Assembly (NCBI GenBank): GCA_965223545.1
Contig: OZ245006.1
Coordinates: 6,848,001 to 6,912,000, forward strand
DNA from: Planctomycetota bacterium
GTDB taxonomy: Bacteria > Planctomycetota > UBA1135 > UBA2386
Reading direction: 5' to 3'
Length of the DNA stretch: 64,000 nt
Position 1 is the stretch's first letter. Every line of letters begins with the position of its first letter. The notes below the pieces were generated by a model. The model was not told the DNA's origin, did no database searches, and worked only from the letters and a program-made list of their open reading frames with translations. The translations under genes and the position numbers were made by a program. Shown piece by piece: positions 33,227-61,559 of this stretch.

Positions 33227-33303
33227 TGGTACGCCCGACAGGATTCGAACCTGTGACCTCCGGTTTAGGAAACCGATGCTCTATCCAACTGAGCTACGGG
33301 CGC
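33227..33303 (-). tRNA. tRNA-Arg(CCT)
   Basis: 77-nt cloverleaf GCGCCCG...CGGGCGT-A-CCA; anticodon loop TTCCTAA; GGTTCGAATCC T-arm. Confidence 0.97.
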
Positions 33304-38786: not shown

Positions 38787-39188
38787 TCATACCGTCTCGG
38801 CGGGCTGGATCAGGTCCCACAGGTTGCCGTAGAGGTCCTCGAAAACGGCGACCGTGCCATACGGTTCGGTGCGCGGGCCGCGCGCGAACACGATCCCCTT
38901 GGCCGTCATCTCTTCGTAGTCGCGCCAGAAGTCATCGGTACCGAGGAAGAACGAGACGCGTCCGCCGGTCTGATTGCCGATGAACGCCGTTTGACCGTCG
39001 TTGGATGGGCGCGCGAGCACGATCCCCGTGCCGTTCGAGCCCGGCGGCGCGACGACGACCCATCGCTTGCCCTGCTCGGGCACGAACGTGTCCTCGAGCA
39101 GCTCGAAGTGCAGGGTCCGGGTGTAGAAGTCGATGGCTTCGTCGTAGTCGCGCACGACCAGGGCCACGAGCAGGATGGACTGCTTCAT
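38787..39188 (-). CDS. VOC/glyoxalase family protein
   Basis: LVVRDYDEAIDFY...EPYGTVAVFEDLYGNLWDL. Confidence 0.92.
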   Translation of the reverse strand: MKQSILLVALVVRDYDEAIDFYTRTLHFELLEDTFVPEQGKRWVVVAPPGSNGTGIVLARPSNDGQTAFIGNQTGGRVSFFLGTDDFWRDYEEMTAKGIVFARGPRTEPYGTVAVFEDLYGNLWDLIQPAETV

Positions 39189-39317
39189 CCCGGTCGATGC
39201 TGCGCGCGGCGGCCGTCCGCAAAAAGAAAGAATTGGTGTCGGTCAGCGCTGTCGTGGATCGTTGGCAGTGCAGCGGTGGAATGCGTTCCACTTCGTTTTG
39301 CGTGTGAGGATCGTGTC

Positions 39318-40910
39318 GTGACCCTGGTGATCACTGGCCGCATTGCCCCGATGGCCTCTGGCGATCCCGCGGCGTCGTTCACCGGCTCCGTTTTCCTCGC
39401 CGAGGGCCGCGTGCAGGCCGTGCGCGCCAGCGGCGCGCCGGAGCCGGCCGGCTTCGCCGAGGCGCCGCGGATCGACGTCGGCGCCGCGTTCGTCTATCCC
39501 GGCCTGTTGGACCTGCACTCGCACATCGGCTACGCGAGCATCCCGCTGTGGTCGGAGGACTCGCGGCCGACGCCGTTCTTGCACCACGACAACTGGCCCA
39601 ATGCGCGGAGCTACAAGTCGTCGGTGACCTGGCCGGCCTATCTGGTCGCGGCGGGGGCGCCGGAGGCGCTGCTGGTCTACGCGCAGGTGCGCGCGCTGGC
39701 GGGCGGCACGACCGCGATCCAGGGCTGGCCCTCGCGCAACCGCAATCCGCTCAATCGGCTGGTGCGCTCGGTGGACGACGAGGATCTCGGCACCGGCGAC
39801 ATGGTGCGGACTTCGGCGTTGACGCTGGACGACGACGAGCTGCGCGAGCGGGCAGAGCGGATGGAGCAGGGCTTCGGTTTCATCTACCACTGCGGCGAGG
39901 GGCAGAAGGGCAGCATCGTCACGCGCGAGTTCGACGACGTCGCCACGACCAACTGCCTGCGGCAAAACCTGATCGCCATCCACATGAACGCGCTCGACGG
40001 CGACGTGTTCCGGCAGTGGAAGGAGCGCGCGGAGCTCGCCGGTGACGATGGGCCGGGGACGTTGGTGTGGTCGCCGTTCTCCAACCTGTGGCTGTACGGC
40101 AGCGATGAGACCACCGATGTCGCGGCGGCGCGTGCCGCCGGCATCGGTGTGTGTCTGGGGACCGACTGGGGGCCGTCGGGGACCAAGAACCTCTTGGGTG
40201 AGCTGAAGGTGGCGCGGATCTGGTCCGAGCGCGAGGGGTTGGGGCTGACCGCGTTCGACCTGGCCCGCATGGTGACCGCGACCCCCGGCGATGCGCTCGC
40301 GCGGCATTGGGGTGCGCAGGCCGGTCGCCTTGTCGAGGATGCGGTGGGGGATGTCGCGGTGATCGACGCGCGCGACGAAGATCCCTGGGAGAACCTGGTG
40401 CTCGCGCAGGAGGAGGACGTTCTCCTGGTCTGTGTCGAGGGCGAGGCCCGCTTCGGGACGCGCACGCTGATGCGTGCGGCGGGCCAGCGCGCGACGACGT
40501 CGGTCGATCTCGGCAACCGCAACAGCCGGCACGTCGCGTTGGTCGACCCCGCCGATCCCGACAAGAGGTGGTACTGGTCGCGCGTGCTGCGCGCGATCGA
40601 TGACGTGCGCAAGGATCCCGCCGGGGCGTTGGCCATGGGACTCCACGCGCGGCGGTTGGCCGCCGACAACGAGCGCGCGCGCCGGCGCGACGGGGTGCCG
40701 CAACCGCGGGGTGCCGCCGGCGACCCGCTCATCCTCGAACTCGACATGCCGGGGCCGGGCGGCGTGCGCGCCGGCCCGCCGCCCGATCCCGCCAGCGTGG
40801 TCGTGCCCAAGGCGCCCGGCCTGCGGCACGACCGGCCGTGGCGGGCGACGTTGACGGGCCGGGCCCATCACGGCGGCGTGCTCGACGAGCTCGACCGTTT
40901 CTACGAGTAG
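39318..40910 (+). CDS. Metal-dependent amidohydrolase (nucleobase/nucleoside deaminase-like)
   Basis: PGLLDLHSH, GGTTAIQG, YHCGEG, AIH, WSPFSN and LGTDW metal-ligand motifs. Confidence 0.88.
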   Translation: MTLVITGRIAPMASGDPAASFTGSVFLAEGRVQAVRASGAPEPAGFAEAPRIDVGAAFVYPGLLDLHSHIGYASIPLWSEDSRPTPFLHHDNWPNARSYKSSVTWPAYLVAAGAPEALLVYAQVRALAGGTTAIQGWPSRNRNPLNRLVRSVDDEDLGTGDMVRTSALTLDDDELRERAERMEQGFGFIYHCGEGQKGSIVTREFDDVATTNCLRQNLIAIHMNALDGDVFRQWKERAELAGDDGPGTLVWSPFSNLWLYGSDETTDVAAARAAGIGVCLGTDWGPSGTKNLLGELKVARIWSEREGLGLTAFDLARMVTATPGDALARHWGAQAGRLVEDAVGDVAVIDARDEDPWENLVLAQEEDVLLVCVEGEARFGTRTLMRAAGQRATTSVDLGNRNSRHVALVDPADPDKRWYWSRVLRAIDDVRKDPAGALAMGLHARRLAADNERARRRDGVPQPRGAAGDPLILELDMPGPGGVRAGPPPDPASVVVPKAPGLRHDRPWRATLTGRAHHGGVLDELDRFYE

Positions 40911-40937
40911 CCGAGAGTGGGCGCTTAGGTATCGACG

Positions 40938-42821
40938 ATGAAGAAGTCCCTCCAGCGCGCGCAGGCCGGCACGGAGCTGCGGCAGTTCGCCGTGCCGAGC
41001 GAGCCGGTCTACCCGATCGCCCACTTGCAGGCCGACGAGCGCGAGCGGTTGGTGGAGACGTTCGTGCGGCTGCTCGAAGGCGTCTACGTCCACCTGCGGC
41101 TCAAGCGCTCGATGTACGGCAAGGATCCCGTGCAGCGTCTGCGGTTGTTGGGGCAGCGCGCCGCTGCGATGGACGAACCCGACTTCCACGCCGAGCTGTC
41201 GGCGATCCTGGTCGACCTGCGCGATGCACACACGCGCTACGCGAGCATCGCGGAGCGGCAGGGGTTGGTGGCGGTGCTGCCGTTCATGGTCGAGCTGTTC
41301 GGTGGCGCCGACGCGCCGCGCTTCTTGGTGTCCAATGTCGTCGAGGACGAGCCGGCATTTGCCGGCACCGAGTTCGCCGCCGGAGTCGAGATCGAATGGT
41401 GGAACGCGGTGCCGATCGCACGCGCGGTCGATCGCTACGCCGAGCGCGAGACCGGCGGCCGGCGCGACGCGCGCCGGCAGCGCGCACTCGAGTCGCTGAC
41501 CTTTCGCGCCCTCGAGTACGGTCCGCCGCCGGACGAGTACTGGGTGCGCGTCGGCTACCGGACCCCGTCCGGGCAAGCGCACGAGGTGCAGGTCGAGTGG
41601 CGTGTGGTCGAGGTCGGCGCGGGCGACGAGACGCGCAGCGAGCAGCCGGACTCCGCCATGGCCTATGCCGCCAACCCCGCCGCCGAAGCGGTGCGCCGCG
41701 CCAAGACGCTGCTGTTCGCTCCGGTGGTTTGGGACGACCACCGGCGCGGGGTGGCCAAGCGGCTGCCGCGGAATCGAGCCGTGCGCGCCGGCGAGTGGCT
41801 CAGCGGCCGGTTCGCCGGCCTGGTCTCCGCCAAAGAGGTCGAGACGGATGCCGGCACGTTCGGCTACCTGCGGCTCTGGAGCTTCGACTTGATCGACGAC
41901 TCCGGTTTCGTCGATGAAGTGATCGAGCTGCTGGATCGGTTGCCGCGGCGCGGGTTGATCGTCGACGTGCGCGCCAACCCCGGCGGGCTGATCTGGGCCG
42001 CCGAGCGGCTGCTGCAGCTGTTCACGCCGCACCGCGTCGAGCCGACGCGCTTCAGCCTGCTCGCCACCGACCTGACGCGCGAGATGGCCGAGCTGCCGCA
42101 GAACGCGCTGCAGCTCGAGCCCTGGCGGCGCAGCCTGGCGGACGCGGTCGCCAACGGCGAGCCGTTCTCGCGTGCTGTGCCGCTGACTCCGCCGCGACTG
42201 TGCCAGAGCACGGGGCAGCGCTACCCGGGGCCGGTGGTGTGCGTCGCCGACGGCAACACCTACTCGGCCGGTGACTTGTTCGCCGCCGGCTTCGTCGACA
42301 ACCGCATCGGTCCGCTGATCACCATCGGCGAGGCGACCGGTGCCGGCGGGGCCAACGTGTGGCGCCGCGCCGACGTCGAACGCGCGCTTGCCGGTGCGCG
42401 GCAGCCGTTGCCACCGTTGCCGGAGAGTGTGTCCTACACGCTCTCGTTTCGGCGCGCGGTGCGGGCAGGCAGCGCGTCGGGCACGTTGATCGAGGACCTC
42501 GGCGTGCCCGGCCACCTCCGCTATGAGTTGACGCGCGAGGATCTGACGGGAGGCAATCGCGACCTGATCGAGTTCTGTGGCCGGCTGCTGGCCTCGGAGC
42601 GGTCGACCGACTTGCAGGTCGAGCGCGTGGGCGACGCTGGCTTGAAGGTGTCGGCCGAGCGATTGGATCGCATCGATGTGTACGTCGACGGCCGCCCGGT
42701 CGGGTCGAGTGCACCGGACGAGCTACCGCCCGCCATCGAGCTGGGCGAATCGTGGTCGGCGGCGGAGGTGCGCGGGTTCGTCGGCCAGAGCCTGCGCCAG
42801 CGCCGGCTCATTCACCGTTGA
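40938..42821 (+). CDS. S41 family peptidase without signal peptide
   Basis: LRDAHT, GYLRLWSF, VDVRANPGG, TYSAGDLF (catalytic Ser), GEATGAGG and IEDLGV. Confidence 0.88.
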   Translation: MKKSLQRAQAGTELRQFAVPSEPVYPIAHLQADERERLVETFVRLLEGVYVHLRLKRSMYGKDPVQRLRLLGQRAAAMDEPDFHAELSAILVDLRDAHTRYASIAERQGLVAVLPFMVELFGGADAPRFLVSNVVEDEPAFAGTEFAAGVEIEWWNAVPIARAVDRYAERETGGRRDARRQRALESLTFRALEYGPPPDEYWVRVGYRTPSGQAHEVQVEWRVVEVGAGDETRSEQPDSAMAYAANPAAEAVRRAKTLLFAPVVWDDHRRGVAKRLPRNRAVRAGEWLSGRFAGLVSAKEVETDAGTFGYLRLWSFDLIDDSGFVDEVIELLDRLPRRGLIVDVRANPGGLIWAAERLLQLFTPHRVEPTRFSLLATDLTREMAELPQNALQLEPWRRSLADAVANGEPFSRAVPLTPPRLCQSTGQRYPGPVVCVADGNTYSAGDLFAAGFVDNRIGPLITIGEATGAGGANVWRRADVERALAGARQPLPPLPESVSYTLSFRRAVRAGSASGTLIEDLGVPGHLRYELTREDLTGGNRDLIEFCGRLLASERSTDLQVERVGDAGLKVSAERLDRIDVYVDGRPVGSSAPDELPPAIELGESWSAAEVRGFVGQSLRQRRLIHR

Positions 42822-42851
42822 CGCGAGGACACCGTTTCACCGAGGAGACCC

Positions 42852-43793
42852 ATGGTTGGATCGTACGACAAGCTGGTAGTGGCCGCGCACCGCGGCAAGA
42901 CCGCGGCCGAGCTGTTGGCGGCGCCGCCGGACGCGATCAAGGGCGTGTCGGCCGCCGACGCCACTCGCCTCGAGGAGGCGTTCGGCATCGACACGGTGGA
43001 GGAGATGGCGCGCAGCCGCTACTTCGAGCACTCGCGCGCGATCCTGGCCGGCGACGGCACGCCGCCGTTCGATCCGGGGCCGCCGCCGGATTGGCAAGAG
43101 CAGTTTGGCCAAGCGCCAGTGCAGCACTACCTGGGCCACCCGAGTGGACGTTTTCGCATCGAGTTCGGGCCGGTGTACTACCGCGGGCGCTTGGACGGCA
43201 CCGCGCGGGTGCTCGTGCTCGGCCAGGACCCGTCGACCAACGAGATCCTGGCGCACCGGATCTTCATCGGCCACTCCGGCCAGCGCATCCAGCGGGTGCT
43301 CGCCAAGCTCGGCATCGAGCGCTCCTACGTGATGCTCAACACGTTCTTGTTCAGCGTGCACGGCCAGTTCGACACCGAGCTGCGGAACATCTCGGAGGAG
43401 CCCGAGGTCGAGGGCTTCCGCCACGAGTGCCTCGACAGGCTGATGGACGACAACAACATCGAGGCCGTGCTCGCGTTCGGCGTCGGCGCCCGGCACGCCG
43501 CGCAGCGGTGGAACGGCCAGGGGAACGTCCCGGTGTTCGAGCTCACGCATCCCGCCGCGTCCGACAACCAGGTGCTGGCCTCTTGGAACCAGCACTTGCC
43601 GGCGATGCTGGCCGCGGTCACGCCGGATGCCGGCGCCGCCGCCGACCCGACGCCGTGGGCGGCGCCGCTGGGCGCCGCCGACATGGCCCCGATCCCGGCC
43701 TTCGACGTGCCCTTCGGCGTGCCCGCATTCCACCTCTCCGGCGGCGGCCACAGCAACCGCAACGGCAACGACCAGATCGTCTGGACCGCGTGA
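42852..43793 (+). CDS. Uracil-DNA glycosylase superfamily protein with small N-terminal helical domain
   Basis: VLVLGQDP, FIGHSGQR, YVMLN and THPAA motifs; N-terminal AIKGVS..A..LEEAFGIDTVEEM (HhH-like). Confidence 0.8.
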   Translation: MVGSYDKLVVAAHRGKTAAELLAAPPDAIKGVSAADATRLEEAFGIDTVEEMARSRYFEHSRAILAGDGTPPFDPGPPPDWQEQFGQAPVQHYLGHPSGRFRIEFGPVYYRGRLDGTARVLVLGQDPSTNEILAHRIFIGHSGQRIQRVLAKLGIERSYVMLNTFLFSVHGQFDTELRNISEEPEVEGFRHECLDRLMDDNNIEAVLAFGVGARHAAQRWNGQGNVPVFELTHPAASDNQVLASWNQHLPAMLAAVTPDAGAAADPTPWAAPLGAADMAPIPAFDVPFGVPAFHLSGGGHSNRNGNDQIVWTA

Positions 43794-43802
43794 GCCTCGC
43801 AG

Positions 43803-44783
43803 CTAGACCGGAAACGGTCCCTCTTCGAACGTCTGTCCTGGGTGATAGCCCTTCGCGCCAACTGCGGCGCTGAGTTGGCTGAAGGGGGACGTGTTGTTCC
43901 GAAGGCACTCGATCGCGTGGGCGAAGGTGACTCTTGGCTCCCAACCGAGGTCCCGACGCGCGGCGGCGTTCACGTAGACCCGGTCGATTCCCTCGAACAT
44001 CCGCCATCCTCGTCGCTCGTACTCGTCCCGATAGTCGGTGTACTGCAGCACGACGCCTTCGGGGTCGTCTCGGAGGCGGGAGAGGTCCGGCCTCTTGAAT
44101 GGCGACGTCGCGCTCAGGATGTATCGCCCAAACCCGAGCTGTGTTGCTCGCTGGAGAGCGAGCAGGTGTGCCTCGACGGCGTCCTCCAGGTCGAGCCGCC
44201 GATAGAGCAGCTCGTTGACCTTCAGGTTCAGGTCTTCGAAGTTCGCCCGCGCTGCCGCGCTGTCGTCTTCCTCGGGAAAGAACCGGGAGGTTCTCAAGAT
44301 CAAGCACGGCAGACCGTGCAGGAAGTGGAAGAGATGACAGAGCTCCTCGGCGGCGACCTTCGTCGTTCCGTAGATGTTCTTCGGAATGGGCCGGACCTCT
44401 TCGGTGATCCATGCGGCGGGCTCCCCGGGAGGAGGAACAAGCGCGCGCCCAAAGGTGCTGGTCGTCGAGGTGAAGATGAAGCACTGACACCGCTGCGCGA
44501 CGGCTTCCTCCAGCAAGTTCAGGGTTCCGGTGATGTTCGAGTCGACGAACTGCTGGCGGGAGTGGGTGGCGACGTGGGGCTTGTGCAGCGTGGCCGCGTG
44601 GAGAATCGCGTCGCATCCAGAGACGGCATCGGCGACCGCCGCTCGATCGGAGACCGACCCCACGACCTCGGTGTAGGGGCTCTCGATCAGGTCGAACCCG
44701 CGGGGTTCGTGAGGACCCGCGCGAAGTGCACGCATGAGCCCTTCGCCGAGATGGCCGGAGCTTCCAGTCACGAGAACTTTCAT
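43803..44783 (-). CDS. NAD-dependent epimerase/dehydratase
   Basis: VTGSSGHLG, HAATLHKPH, FTSTTS and YGTTK. Confidence 0.93.
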   Translation of the reverse strand: MKVLVTGSSGHLGEGLMRALRAGPHEPRGFDLIESPYTEVVGSVSDRAAVADAVSGCDAILHAATLHKPHVATHSRQQFVDSNITGTLNLLEEAVAQRCQCFIFTSTTSTFGRALVPPPGEPAAWITEEVRPIPKNIYGTTKVAAEELCHLFHFLHGLPCLILRTSRFFPEEDDSAAARANFEDLNLKVNELLYRRLDLEDAVEAHLLALQRATQLGFGRYILSATSPFKRPDLSRLRDDPEGVVLQYTDYRDEYERRGWRMFEGIDRVYVNAAARRDLGWEPRVTFAHAIECLRNNTSPFSQLSAAVGAKGYHPGQTFEEGPFPV

Positions 44784-45849
44784 CTGCACCGCGAGTACGG
44801 AGTCGCACTCGATTTTCTCGCTACCGCGCGGTCACGACCAGCATCCTTCGCGTGCGCTGCTCCTTGTCGAGCTGCTTGGCCGCAGCGGGCGAGCGCGGCG
44901 ACGAATGAGCCCCGATCGCCCGGAACCCAGGTGACGTCCACGTCCCAGTAGCCCTGCCATCCCGGTTTCGTCGACGATTTCGCTGCCGGTCATGTTGCCG
45001 ACCCACGCGGTCGTCGGCACGGTCAGCAGGCGGTAGCCGAGGCGATCGGTAGCCGTCGGGGCGCCTTCGTCCCACTCGACGTTGGCGCGGACGTTGGTCT
45101 TCAACGTGAGGTCGATTTCCGAGCCGCCGGCCAGTGCGCGCGGTGCGTCGGCGGTGACGTCGTGGGGGCGCGTGATCGCCGCGATCTCACCGCGATCTCA
45201 CCGCACCGGTTGAGCACGACGGTGTGTGGCACGACACCCGCACCGTAAGCCATGAACGACCGCTCGCCAGAACCATATGTTCCTCCGGATATCGCTTGGT
45301 CCGCGCGCAAGCCGTGGCCAAGACCTCCTCGTCGCGCCGTGGCAGGAAGTACGAATCGTCGGTTCCTGCAGTCCCGCGTCCTCGTACCCGAGGGCCTTTT
45401 CCTGCCTCCGCAGGCAGTCGAGCTCACCGAGTAGGTTGGCCTGTCGGCGTTGGGTGCCGCGGTCCTCGTGGAGTTCGGCGAGGCAGACCGGCGGCGAGCG
45501 CGCGCAAGCCGCGAGGAGCGCGCCGTGAGCGACCTCCTCCCACCCATTCCTGCCTACGCGGGCTAGTGCCGCGGCCGCATCATCTTCGAGACGCGCTCGC
45601 GAAAGTCTGACAACAAGTAGCGTTCGACGGTCGACCCACTGACGCCGAGGCGCGAGAGGGCAGTCGCGATGCGATGAAGGTCAACGACATCCAACGCGCT
45701 GTCCTCCAGGAGCGCGGCGTGTCGCCCTGCCCTACCTAAGTAGCGTCAGGCATCACTGGCAGCGCGCGGGCGACTCTTGCGGCGGTCCGGGGGTTGTTCG
45801 CGACGTAAAGCGCCTCCGCATCCGGAAGCGGCCCGACGCGCCTGCAGAT

Positions 45850-48628: not shown

Positions 48629-51628
48629 ATGACTGAGGCTGGCCTAGAGACGCTAGACTCCAAACTATCAGTGTCCGACAGCTCCGCAAAGCGAGACTTC
48701 CTGTTCTATCGTCAAACCGGAGAGCTAGCCGCGCTTGAGCGAGCGCTTCGCGCGGCAAAGCCAGAGCTACTAGAACATGCCTACTCGCTCACGCGGCATC
48801 GGGCAGATGCCGCGGACTTGGTGCAGGAAACCCTGCTCATCGCAGCCATGCGACACGAGCAGTTCCGGTGTGAAGCCGAGTTCTCGGCCTGGCTGCGCGG
48901 CATCCTGCGCAACCTGACGCGCAAACATCGGGCCCGCCGCGGGCCGCGCCCACTGAGCCTGCACGCTCCATCGGGCCCGCAGCAGGCAGAGCCTCTGCAA
49001 TCGGCACTTAACCACGAACTACGCCAATGCCTAAGTGCCGCGATCGCACGACTCTCTCCGCGCTACCGCGAAGTGCTCGAACTATACCTGGCTGGTGAAA
49101 CCACTTCCCTTGGCATTGCAGAGAAGCTAGGCCGCAGTGCCAGCACGGTACGTAGCCAGTTGGAAAGAGGCCTACGGAAGCTCCGTCGACATCTCCCGAA
49201 GTCACTCGCACCACTAGTAGTCGCGCTGCTCGTCGGCGGTCCTGCACGTGCAAGCCTCCCGCCAAGGCGTCCACACGCTCGTCTATTGCCGGTCTTCGGC
49301 GGCCTAGCCCTGCTGATCCTACTGACTGGGCTGAGGCTGGCGCTTTGGCCCCGCGGGCCTCGAGCAGAGCCGGCGTTCGCATCCGATCGCAGCCCCCTCT
49401 CCTCTACATCGCGCGAGGTGGACGCCCAAGCTAACAAAGACTCGCTACCACGCTCCGAACGCCGGGCTAACGAACAGGCAGGCGTCACGGTAGCCTTGAG
49501 CTGGCCGGACGGTAGACCCGCCGCCGGCGTGGCGCTTGTGCTGGAGACTGACGCTAGGCCCGGGACCCAACCATTACTTACACACTTTGATACCTGGCGC
49601 CATTCCATCACCGACACCGAAGGCGAAGCGCATTTTCTCAACCTGCCCAGCGGAGCAACACGCCTCCGGCTCGATGACGTCTCCGTTCTTCACAGACTAG
49701 AGCTGCGTCCCGGGCAGAGACATCGGATTGAGAAGCGCGTAGAAACGACCTTCGAAATTGCAGGCACAGTGCGCAATGGACTCGGTCTGCCGGTTGCCGG
49801 GGCCGAGATCTGGATCAGCGGTAGTCGACGGATGATGACACCGGGCTACATTGCCTGTAGGAGTGACGAGCTAGGTCGCTTTGCTGCACCACTATTCTTG
49901 GCGCGCATCGATTTTGAATTATGGGCCGCAGCTGCTGGTATCGGAGTCTCCAACTGCTATCGCCCCCAAGCCGCTAGGCTACGCTTGGAGCAAGACCTGG
50001 TAGTGCGCAGTTCAGCGCGGCGTATCGAAGGCCTGTTACTTGGACCACAGGGTTCTGGCGTTGCTGGTATCGTAGCGCTCTATCCCAAGCGCTCTGCCGA
50101 ATATGCGCCACCGATTCAATATGCGCAAACGGACTCCCGCGGGCGCTTCACCTTCGAGCATCTGACCGCCACCGGCTATCGGCTGGCTGGAACAGCGCCC
50201 GGATTGGCTGGATCGACTGTCGAGCTCGACCTCTCAGAAAACGAGCGGAGGAATCTACTTCTGCAGCTCACGCAGGGTGTTCTGATCAGCGGCCAGGTTC
50301 ATGGTTTTGAGCTGCAGCAACTTCAGCGACTGCGTGTTGGCGGACGGTCCCCGGCCTCGCTCTTGCGTGCTCCCGAGCAGTTCTTGTTGCTACGAAGCGC
50401 AGCAGTAGCTGCTGATGCGAGCTTTCGCGTAGGTCCGTTCCCTCCCGGAGCAACCCTTCTTGGGGTGATGGATATTGAGCGTCCACATGGACCATTGGAC
50501 AGTCTGCTGCTGGAGATTCCTGCGGCGGGAGCGCTACGCTGCGACTTCTTTGCACAGGCGCGGGCACCGTGGCGCGTTCGAGTGCAAACACCATCCGGTG
50601 CTCCCGCTGCCAAGCTCTGGGTAGCGCTTGCTCATCCAACTCAGAAGCCAAGCGACGGTCGCTATACAGCGCTTGCCTCGACCGATGCCGAGGGCTTGGC
50701 AGAATTTGCAACTCTCCCTCAGCATCCGCTACAGGTGTTCGTGCTCAGCGAGCCAACAGCGCGCCTGCCACTAGCTTTCGCCCGTGACGTGATGCCAGGC
50801 AGCAAGCTGGTCTTAGTCCTTCCTCAGCAGCTCGAAGCTGGCCGCGTCTCCGGGACTTTGACTCAAGCTCCAGCGGACTTCAGAACTGGAGTAAGCCTAC
50901 GCCTGCGTCACGAGGGGAGCTCTGCTGCGCGGCTGCTCGAGGTGGCCGCATCGGAGCGGAGATTTTCTTTCCAGAAGATCCCGCCTGGTAACTACGTGTT
51001 GGAGCTCATTGGCCAAAGCTCTCCCCGCGCGGCAGTAGCGCTAGCCAAAGCCGTCGTTACATCGGCTAGTGCTATAGACCTCGGAGAGCTGCGCGTTCCG
51101 GAGTGGGGCGTGCTACGGGTTCGTGCCCCGCGGAACTCGGCTGACTCCGTGCTCCCCTTCTCTGTTCGCCAGTCCGATGGTTCTCTGCTGCTCGCCGCGC
51201 AGCTACTAGGAAGCCAGCTGCAGGAGTTGAAGCTGCCGACAGTAGCACTTCGGCTGGAGTTCCTCGACACGGCTGGAATCCTGCGCTCGCATCAGCTCAT
51301 TCTCTCAAGAGATGAGCGTCGAGAGCTTATGCTCGATACCGGAGCTGGGCACCCCGTTCGCTTATTGTTTCCTTTCTCCGAAACTCAAGGTAAGAGCACG
51401 GTGAGCGGCAGCGCTGTGGTCACAATCCGCAGCCAGAAAACCGTCTCAGATCGCCACTTCTCGGCAGTCTACCTCGATGGAGGGCTCTATAGCGTGAGCA
51501 CCGACTTAGCTCCTGGAGCTTTCCAGATCTCCTTCATCTCTACCTGGAACCGTCCTCTTCAACGCACGATCGAGGTTCTAGAGCGACACGAGCTGCAGGA
51601 GTTCCGCTTGCCGCTTGTGCGCCTGTAG
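48629..51628 (+). CDS. ECF sigma factor fused through a transmembrane segment to carboxypeptidase-regulatory-like (beta-sandwich) repeats
   Basis: DAADLVQET, FSAWLRGI and STVRSQLERGLRKLR; hydrophobic segment; G.V...G.PVAGA and TD..GRF repeats. Confidence 0.85.
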   Translation: MTEAGLETLDSKLSVSDSSAKRDFLFYRQTGELAALERALRAAKPELLEHAYSLTRHRADAADLVQETLLIAAMRHEQFRCEAEFSAWLRGILRNLTRKHRARRGPRPLSLHAPSGPQQAEPLQSALNHELRQCLSAAIARLSPRYREVLELYLAGETTSLGIAEKLGRSASTVRSQLERGLRKLRRHLPKSLAPLVVALLVGGPARASLPPRRPHARLLPVFGGLALLILLTGLRLALWPRGPRAEPAFASDRSPLSSTSREVDAQANKDSLPRSERRANEQAGVTVALSWPDGRPAAGVALVLETDARPGTQPLLTHFDTWRHSITDTEGEAHFLNLPSGATRLRLDDVSVLHRLELRPGQRHRIEKRVETTFEIAGTVRNGLGLPVAGAEIWISGSRRMMTPGYIACRSDELGRFAAPLFLARIDFELWAAAAGIGVSNCYRPQAARLRLEQDLVVRSSARRIEGLLLGPQGSGVAGIVALYPKRSAEYAPPIQYAQTDSRGRFTFEHLTATGYRLAGTAPGLAGSTVELDLSENERRNLLLQLTQGVLISGQVHGFELQQLQRLRVGGRSPASLLRAPEQFLLLRSAAVAADASFRVGPFPPGATLLGVMDIERPHGPLDSLLLEIPAAGALRCDFFAQARAPWRVRVQTPSGAPAAKLWVALAHPTQKPSDGRYTALASTDAEGLAEFATLPQHPLQVFVLSEPTARLPLAFARDVMPGSKLVLVLPQQLEAGRVSGTLTQAPADFRTGVSLRLRHEGSSAARLLEVAASERRFSFQKIPPGNYVLELIGQSSPRAAVALAKAVVTSASAIDLGELRVPEWGVLRVRAPRNSADSVLPFSVRQSDGSLLLAAQLLGSQLQELKLPTVALRLEFLDTAGILRSHQLILSRDERRELMLDTGAGHPVRLLFPFSETQGKSTVSGSAVVTIRSQKTVSDRHFSAVYLDGGLYSVSTDLAPGAFQISFISTWNRPLQRTIEVLERHELQEFRLPLVRL

Positions 51629-61472: not shown

Positions 61473-61559
61473 GGTGGGATGGCAGAGTGGCCGAATGCGG
61501 CAGCCTTGAAAGCTGTTGAGGCCTTCGGGTCTCCGGGGGTTCGAATCCCTCTCCCACCG
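61473..61559 (+). tRNA. tRNA-Ser(TGA)
   Basis: GGTGGGA/TCCCACC acceptor stem, anticodon loop CTTGAAA, long variable arm, GGTTCGAATCC; CCA not encoded. Confidence 0.95.

Follow-up and report, generated by a model that had tools for sequence, protein, structure and literature searches.

The available text on BdiUng (PMC5449639) describes a dimeric, Ugi-resistant uracil-DNA glycosylase that favours ssDNA and removes uracil, 5hmU and xanthine, but not inosine, from a minimal substrate of at least pNUNN; crystals were obtained with free uracil and with free xanthine. The enzyme neither rescues E. coli ung nor lowers C-to-T mutation in E. coli, and the main text of the paper names no operon, amidohydrolase or protease. 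Chlamydial CPAF is described, in the sections available, as a zymogen in which an internal helix of ~40 residues occludes the active site (PMC4734761). Two defence systems are also close in outline. In the available part of PMC13160076, Brig1 and Brig3 are UDG-superfamily enzymes turned against modified phage bases, and BapA, the partner of Brig3, alters the base prior to excision by releasing glucose. Kongming, as presented in the accessible text of 10.1101/2024.12.20.629578, has three genes including a nucleobase deaminase.

The window (the whole 64,000-nucleotide stretch of a Planctomycetota contig that was analysed) carries an amidohydrolase gene (AMH), an S41 protease gene and a BdiUng-family glycosylase gene in the following layout.

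38787-39188, minus strand: glyoxalase gene, on the AMH flank
39275-39302, plus strand: terminator-like hairpin with a T-run, in the 129-nt leader before AMH
39318-40910, plus strand: AMH, metal-dependent amidohydrolase, 530 aa, GTG start (ORF, Pfam Amidohydro_1)
40938-42821, plus strand: CPAF-like S41 serine protease, 627 aa (ORF, Pfam Peptidase_S41)
42852-43793, plus strand: BdiUng (Blr0248)-family uracil-DNA glycosylase, 313 aa (ORF, Pfam UDG)
43803-44789, minus strand: epimerase gene, on the flank of the glycosylase gene

The AMH-S41-glycosylase unit is real and conserved. Each part comes from a known superfamily, and several phyla preserve the combination, through gene order, two-way fusion and partner swapping. 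It is apparently undescribed in the literature outside subscription journals; the main text of PMC7159879 contains no amidohydrolase, and the string S41 occurs there only within reference DOIs. The trio defines a large deaminase-fold family, puts a cytoplasmic, CPAF-like protease in free-living bacteria, and offers a testable context for BdiUng and its in vivo role. If its purpose is defence, and equally if it is catabolism, the unit would deal with deaminated or modified bases by a new route.

An earlier note, made from the letters alone, had described three co-directional genes between opposite-strand neighbours, and ORF and Pfam analysis agrees, finding all three genes intact, with gaps of 27 nt between AMH and S41 and 30 nt between S41 and the glycosylase gene. 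The motifs it had picked out, HxH (H67/H69) in AMH, YSAGD (S443) in S41 and GQDP (D126) in the glycosylase, are present and are kept in 119-120 of 120 homologues. Its observation that the protease has no signal peptide holds as well and extends to all three proteins, each with 0/120 homologues positive, by a hydrophobicity heuristic rather than SignalP. Each gene occurs once in the 8.1-Mb genome. A recent foreign island is ruled out by composition: the GC content of the trio, 0.70-0.72, matches the 0.697 of the genome. The neighbourhood consists of the glyoxalase, the epimerase, FG-GAP proteins and a sigma-factor fusion, with no defence island. The fusion, of a sigma factor to a carboxypeptidase-regulatory domain, lies at 48629-51628, and the window also carries a Ser/Thr kinase-TPR gene and two tRNA genes (33230-33303 and 61473-61559). 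The scan for terminator-like sites found 4 against a shuffle mean of 1.7 (sd 1.3); a search for a riboswitch found no Rfam family in the window or at 21 loci.

To follow the linkage of the genes, metagenomes were scanned with an S41 alignment, and the best 80 of 450 confirmed loci were kept and collapsed to 50 lineages, a choice that biases the sample to close S41 relatives. Of these 80 loci, 50 contain AMH, 40 contain the glycosylase and 32 contain the two together. Upstream DNA is visible in 37 lineages of this best-80 set; S41 is immediately preceded by AMH in 29 of them, and the other 8 have no adjacent upstream AMH. The glycosylase adjoins 16 of the 18 fully visible AMH-S41 pairs (same best 80 of 450), and takes all four arrangements among 29 of the lineages so sampled: downstream on the same strand in 10, downstream on the opposite strand in 7, and upstream in 6 on each strand. 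It is therefore on the opposite strand in 13 of 29, so that within these best 80 of 450 loci co-transcription with AMH-S41 is not required. In some lineages the glycosylase is doubled in tandem, and its second UDG domain is degenerate. A fourth conserved gene was considered as part of the unit and dropped, since none was found across the 50 lineages from the best 80 of 450 loci; nor was a conserved transporter or regulator found flanking the unit. One S41 subgroup of ~650-690 aa (L047, L051, L056, L064, L070, L078) has neither AMH, glycosylase nor a conserved neighbour. The four arrangements, together with the fusions, rule out chance adjacency of the trio. The earlier note would have fallen had the three genes not co-occurred elsewhere; they do so far beyond chance, in metagenome loci, in fusions and in several phyla.

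The fusions were taken from the best 150 of 4770 AMH representatives. Among these 150 there are 16 AMH-S41 fusions, of which 11 have the full His/Ser/Glu set, and their S41 domains are mostly of a different subtype from the operon S41. The same best 150 of 4770 include four BdiUng-AMH fusions and fusions of AMH to HAD-like (13), LTD (5) and HhH_3 (1) domains. A UDG-like 'GINP' domain is fused to AMH in four more of the best 150 of 4770, and again in Azospirillum. This domain is a lead for a second UDG-fold type, suggested by its motif order and by an Atlas match of 0.91 (UDG on 29% of members); hhalign gave a probability of 0.4, and neither a PDB search nor Pfam gave confirmation. The N-termini of P0478, P0389 and P0394 presumably resemble MoxR-vWA conflict-system proteins; NCBIfam holds no family of the MoxR-vWA type for them.

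Partners are also swapped. A Variovorax plasmid and the loci L071 and L081 have the order S41, P460-like gene, AMH, family-1 Ung-like gene. A cytochrome-P460-like protein recurs beside sister-clade AMHs (L084:6726-7955, L091:9567-10880), the one in L084 with a signal peptide by eye. An AMH cluster of Azospirillum has an Ung-like gene at one side and an S8 protease at the other, the S8 following AMH; on plasmid p5 (L096:800-19190) this cluster runs GH16, M4, a 954-aa unknown, Ung-like, HAD-hemerythrin, GMC, GDPD, a nucleosidase-looking ORF (by eye, with no Pfam match), the GINP-AMH fusion and a split S8. Mesorhizobium pOM4 (L095:7112-19297) has a hydrolase cluster using an S41 of the same family, as an S8-S41 fusion followed by an unknown gene, PLD and a HAD-M28-M36 fusion.

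The distribution is patchy. The names of source organisms among the homologues range over Actinomycetota, Luteitalea, Promineifilaceae, Gemmatimonadota and Woeseiaceae. S41 was found in 0 of 60 relatives. Among 401 genomes of the window's phylum, a sample that includes kin so that the counts are not independent, AMH has a match in 14 (two being a distant outgroup and ten one family), and the glycosylase occurs in 5, all within those 14; the two are neighbours only in the window genome and in one other of the 401 (G656). No AMH was found in 401 genomes of the phylum of the Sutterella record, with three candidates scored per genome. The viral contigs searched gave no AMH, and the phages and plasmids searched gave no glycosylase. 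A search of genome contigs with a single S41 protein returned two loci, both spurious.

The AMH fold is of the MTA/adenosine/guanine-deaminase type. The metal ligands H67, H69, H191, H222 and D283 and the HxxE glutamate E194 are invariant in 120/120 homologues, as are the family residues W93, Y99 and R150. The AF2 model (pLDDT 93.9) aligns with 4gbd over 375 residues at Z 30.4 and rmsd 3.0 (VIA), and 1p1m and 4f0s tie with it; MTA/adenosine deaminases rank best, with isocytosine deaminase, triazine hydrolases and guanine deaminases close behind. The solved neighbours also include the non-nucleobase hydrolases AtzA, TrzN and AHS. COG0402-type deaminases (MTA/SAH, guanine, 8-oxoguanine, isocytosine) thus share with AMH the fold (Z ~30) and the HxH/HxxE/H/D ligands, whereas AMH differs in an identity of at most 20%, in its own C-terminal extension and in NCBIfam scores far below cut-off (best 33.5 against a cut-off of 375 bits for the named guanine, MTA/SAH and 8-oxoguanine deaminase equivalogs). 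Structural alignments mostly stop at about residue 436-440, and the last ~90 residues (~440-530) are family-specific. This extension holds a variable-length loop at 461-470 of lower confidence (pLDDT 68), around which the spacing is 44-58 aa in the 82 of 120 homologues with both anchors found. The family has 940 clusters at E<=1e-30, and in a quick IQ-TREE run, as opposed to a finished careful search, the operon AMHs form a separate clade with support 100. AMH is therefore placed in the deaminase-fold family; that it deaminates nucleobases is what we infer from sequence and fold.

For the S41 protease, the top five Foldseek matches are all CPAF (E 1e-25 to 8e-23) and the next match falls at 2e-15, so that some ten orders of magnitude separate CPAF from other S41 structures. 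The NCBIfam model chlamy_CPAF (NF033424) matches with E 2e-19 and 69.3 bits, below its curated cut-off of 250 bits. H98, S443 and E519 are invariant in 120/120 homologues. They form the putative catalytic triad, an assignment that leans, besides this invariance, on what we take to be the chemistry of CPAF. The protein comprises a cryptic PDZ-like region, a conserved internal helix at 247-265 and a C-terminal beta domain. The profile match to CPAF is collinear (82-369 to 79-366), and the helix sits where that match places the inhibitory helix; it is a candidate auto-inhibitory segment, and self-inhibition is suggested by this coincidence of position. Chlamydial CPAF (3dor/3dpn) is hence the closest solved fold, sharing the His/Ser/Glu set and, as far as the available text of PMC4734761 locates the inhibitory region, a conserved internal helix there. 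The two differ in that identity is only 17-19% and S41 has an extra C-terminal beta domain and no signal peptide. Unlike chlamydial CPAF, S41 occurs in free-living bacteria, adjoining or fused to a deaminase-like enzyme. A complex prediction for S41 with AMH scored 0.00, which is no answer and counts neither way.

Gene 3 matches BdiUng (5gn2) with a phmmer E of 1.3e-32. Its active-site residues, mapped from PMC5449639, are D126, S128, N163 and H233; D126 is kept in 119/120 homologues and N163 and H233 in 120/120. The motif A GQDP[A/S], YxMxN and the catalytic His of the BdiUng family are all present, and the 4Fe-4S cysteines of family 4 are absent, there being one Cys only. The equivalents of BdiUng D57/N94/H168 are thus retained, along with M92 and a small residue at A59 (S128). 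Gene 3 differs from BdiUng in having F138 in place of L69 and an extra N-terminal domain of ~70 aa. A lead from Pfam HHH_5 (E 0.078) and from an Atlas match of 0.90 to a cluster with DUF4332 on 48% and HHH_5 on 28% suggests that this domain may be HhH/DUF4332-like. Its 70 aa (42852-43061) also resemble stand-alone hypothetical proteins of ~70 aa that are common in Actinomycetota (Atlas 0.93). Since the genome has two more UDG-superfamily genes, gene 3 is probably accessory.

Deamination of C, 5hmC and G yields uracil, 5hmU and xanthine, respectively. Some chemical coupling from the deaminase to the glycosylase, for whatever purpose, is in our judgement probable: the 'deaminate-then-excise' part of the earlier note fits the folds and the BdiUng substrates given in the available text of PMC5449639. 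Its proposal of gating by proteolysis is plausible in that the closest match of the protease is the zymogen CPAF (Foldseek), with the self-inhibition read from the position of the helix. Our leading reading, held tentatively, is that the trio is a conserved mobile unit and acts as a protease-gated 'deaminate-then-excise' system against foreign DNA. The protease would wait in the cytoplasm as a self-inhibited zymogen until activated by a trigger, for example an invader protein. It would then free or activate AMH, possibly by a cut in the variable loop of the C-terminal extension. AMH would deaminate amino-bases, most plausibly as nucleosides or nucleotides (C to U, 5hmC to 5hmU, G to X), and these would be built into newly made DNA. 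Finally, the glycosylase, if Ugi-resistant and ssDNA-preferring like BdiUng, would excise them and leave abasic sites in replicating invader DNA. The substrate of AMH, the zymogen state, the gating and the target are all supposed from this argument, and the linkage, fusions, folds and intact active sites are observed. A more specific form, in which deamination of the nucleotide pool, including phage-modified 5hmC, marks invader DNA with U, 5hmU or xanthine for destruction by a Ugi-proof glycosylase, is unlikely to hold in all its particulars. Were the immune reading true, the BdiUng family would gain its missing physiological role, and in the protease we would see an ancestral form of CPAF-type zymogens, free-living and cytoplasmic, that serves as an immune switch.

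The conserved unit behind the earlier note's interpretation is strongly supported by linkage and fusions, while its defence label is not established. In favour of defence are the patchiness, the domain shuffling, the sister-clade AMHs in plasmid defence islands and, from what is available of PMC5449639 and PMC13160076, the homologue's Ugi resistance and hmU activity and the precedent of Brig3/BapA. Against it stand the lack of a PADLOC match, the few and generic defence matches in the flanks, and relatives that look secreted or catabolic. The leading reading as a whole also gains from the partner swapping, the two further UDG-superfamily genes of the genome and flanks in which no conserved transporter or regulator was found. 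It loses from the AMH fusions to LTD, HhH_3 and HAD-like domains, the 8 of 37 lineages (best 80 of 450 loci) with no AMH adjacent upstream, the close AMH family on just 2 of 37 plasmid records with an Ung-like match, and the non-nucleobase hydrolases among the nearest solved folds of AMH. The PADLOC check that the note had suggested came out negative, the trio proteins matching 0 families of PADLOC 2.0 at E<=1 (library from 2023). Nor did the operon flanks give a clear sign of defence-island enrichment: of 145 genes scanned out of 162 selected at 25 operon-clade loci, 4 match PADLOC at E<=1e-15, all through generic domains and with no matched control set for the count. Of 9 plasmid loci with sister-clade AMHs that were viewed, 4 have defence or restriction genes next to the AMH, namely AbiH and PD-T7-1, DptH and type I HsdR, or HNH and Fic. 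One of these settings, in which rhizobial plasmids carry an AMH by itself between AbiH and PD-T7-1/RmrT-like genes (L085:7962-11819, L092), is a candidate single-gene defence deaminase. Two STAND-type NTPase genes occur among 80 neighbours scanned. The trio would resemble Brig1/Brig3-BapA in turning a UDG-superfamily enzyme on modified bases, with the role of BapA likened to that of AMH, going by the available part of PMC13160076. It differs in having a deaminase-fold partner, an added protease and no defence-island context, and it is known from genes alone.

A catabolic or scavenging unit ranks close behind protease-gated action on invaders, and we regard it as a somewhat doubtful but serious alternative. 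Nitrogen and bases would be recycled from peptidyl-nucleosides or from nucleic acid that the cell takes up and that may be modified or coated with protein, with the protease stripping protein, AMH deaminating and the UDG fold freeing the base. The signal-peptide heuristic is positive for 9 of 11 AMH and 3 of 3 full-length BdiUng homologues from elsewhere in the window's phylum, one such BdiUng homologue carrying a ComEA-like HhH_3, and the AMH fusions to LTD, HhH_3 and HAD, the Azospirillum hydrolase cluster (M4, GH16, HAD, GDPD, GMC, S8) and operon flanks with few, generic defence matches (4/145 PADLOC matches, no control set) point the same way. The signal-peptide-bearing homologues (L112-L124, L127, L129) belong to large-genome members of the phylum, and many have a short Gly-rich hydrophobic tail. 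Support also comes from an Ensifer/S. meliloti operon with a RutR-like regulator, an Ung-like gene, a GMC oxidoreductase, a BMP ABC transporter, a RihA-like nucleoside hydrolase (annotated in Ensifer) and a different deaminase-type amidohydrolase. Its divergent family-1 Ung-like gene, at the head of the RutR-like-regulated operon, possibly represents a UDG fold in modified-pyrimidine catabolism. This operon, at L130:8107-18837 (Ensifer pT173d) and in L131 (S. meliloti pSymA), includes NIPSNAP as well; Ung-like matches occur on 37 plasmid records, 2 of which carry the close AMH family. However, the heuristic gives the operon clade no signal peptides, its neighbourhoods share no transporter or regulator, one would not expect base catabolism to use a deaminase fused to a CPAF-like protease, and BdiUng requires at least pNUNN in the text available (PMC5449639).

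Alternatively, AMH could be an abortive or interbacterial toxin, a deaminase switched on by the protease, with the glycosylase gene serving separately for self-protective repair. The opposite-strand glycosylases (13/29 lineages from the best 80 of 450 loci) and the AMHs found without glycosylase in defence islands suit this idea, and a repair gene guarding against a deaminase toxin is described in the accessible part of PMC13648612. We consider it quite improbable, because the BdiUng-AMH fusions favour joint action and neither secretion nor immunity genes are conserved nearby.

Signalling in the manner of Kongming, in which AMH would make a deaminated nucleotide or base, the UDG fold would sense it and the protease would be activated as effector, is very improbable. 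A set of three genes that includes a deaminase and a fold derived from repair, the degenerate second UDG domain of the tandem forms and the BdiUng crystals with free uracil and xanthine (PMC5449639, available text) agree with it. Against it, single-domain glycosylases keep the catalytic Asp, Asn and His, and the fusion partner of the protease, in the best 150 of 4770 representatives, is AMH and never the glycosylase. The trio also has a glycosylase and a protease instead of the HAM1 and SIR2 genes, and no gene of the HAM1-like KomB or SIR2 KomC type occurs among the 80 neighbours scanned, which places it outside Kongming. A link from the AMH family to the R-body deaminase DeaR, described as adenosine-deaminase-like in the available text of PMC13733733, was not seen.

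A role in accessory DNA repair, directed at deaminated bases or DNA-protein crosslinks when nitrosative or oxidative stress arises, has equally little to recommend it: BdiUng is a bona fide glycosylase (PMC5449639, as far as available) and a protease with a glycosylase would suit crosslink repair, but a deaminase makes such lesions rather than removing them, the distribution is patchy (S41 in 0/60 relatives, glycosylase in 5/401 phylum genomes), the genome has other UDGs, and BdiUng does not lower C-to-T mutation in E. coli in the same source.
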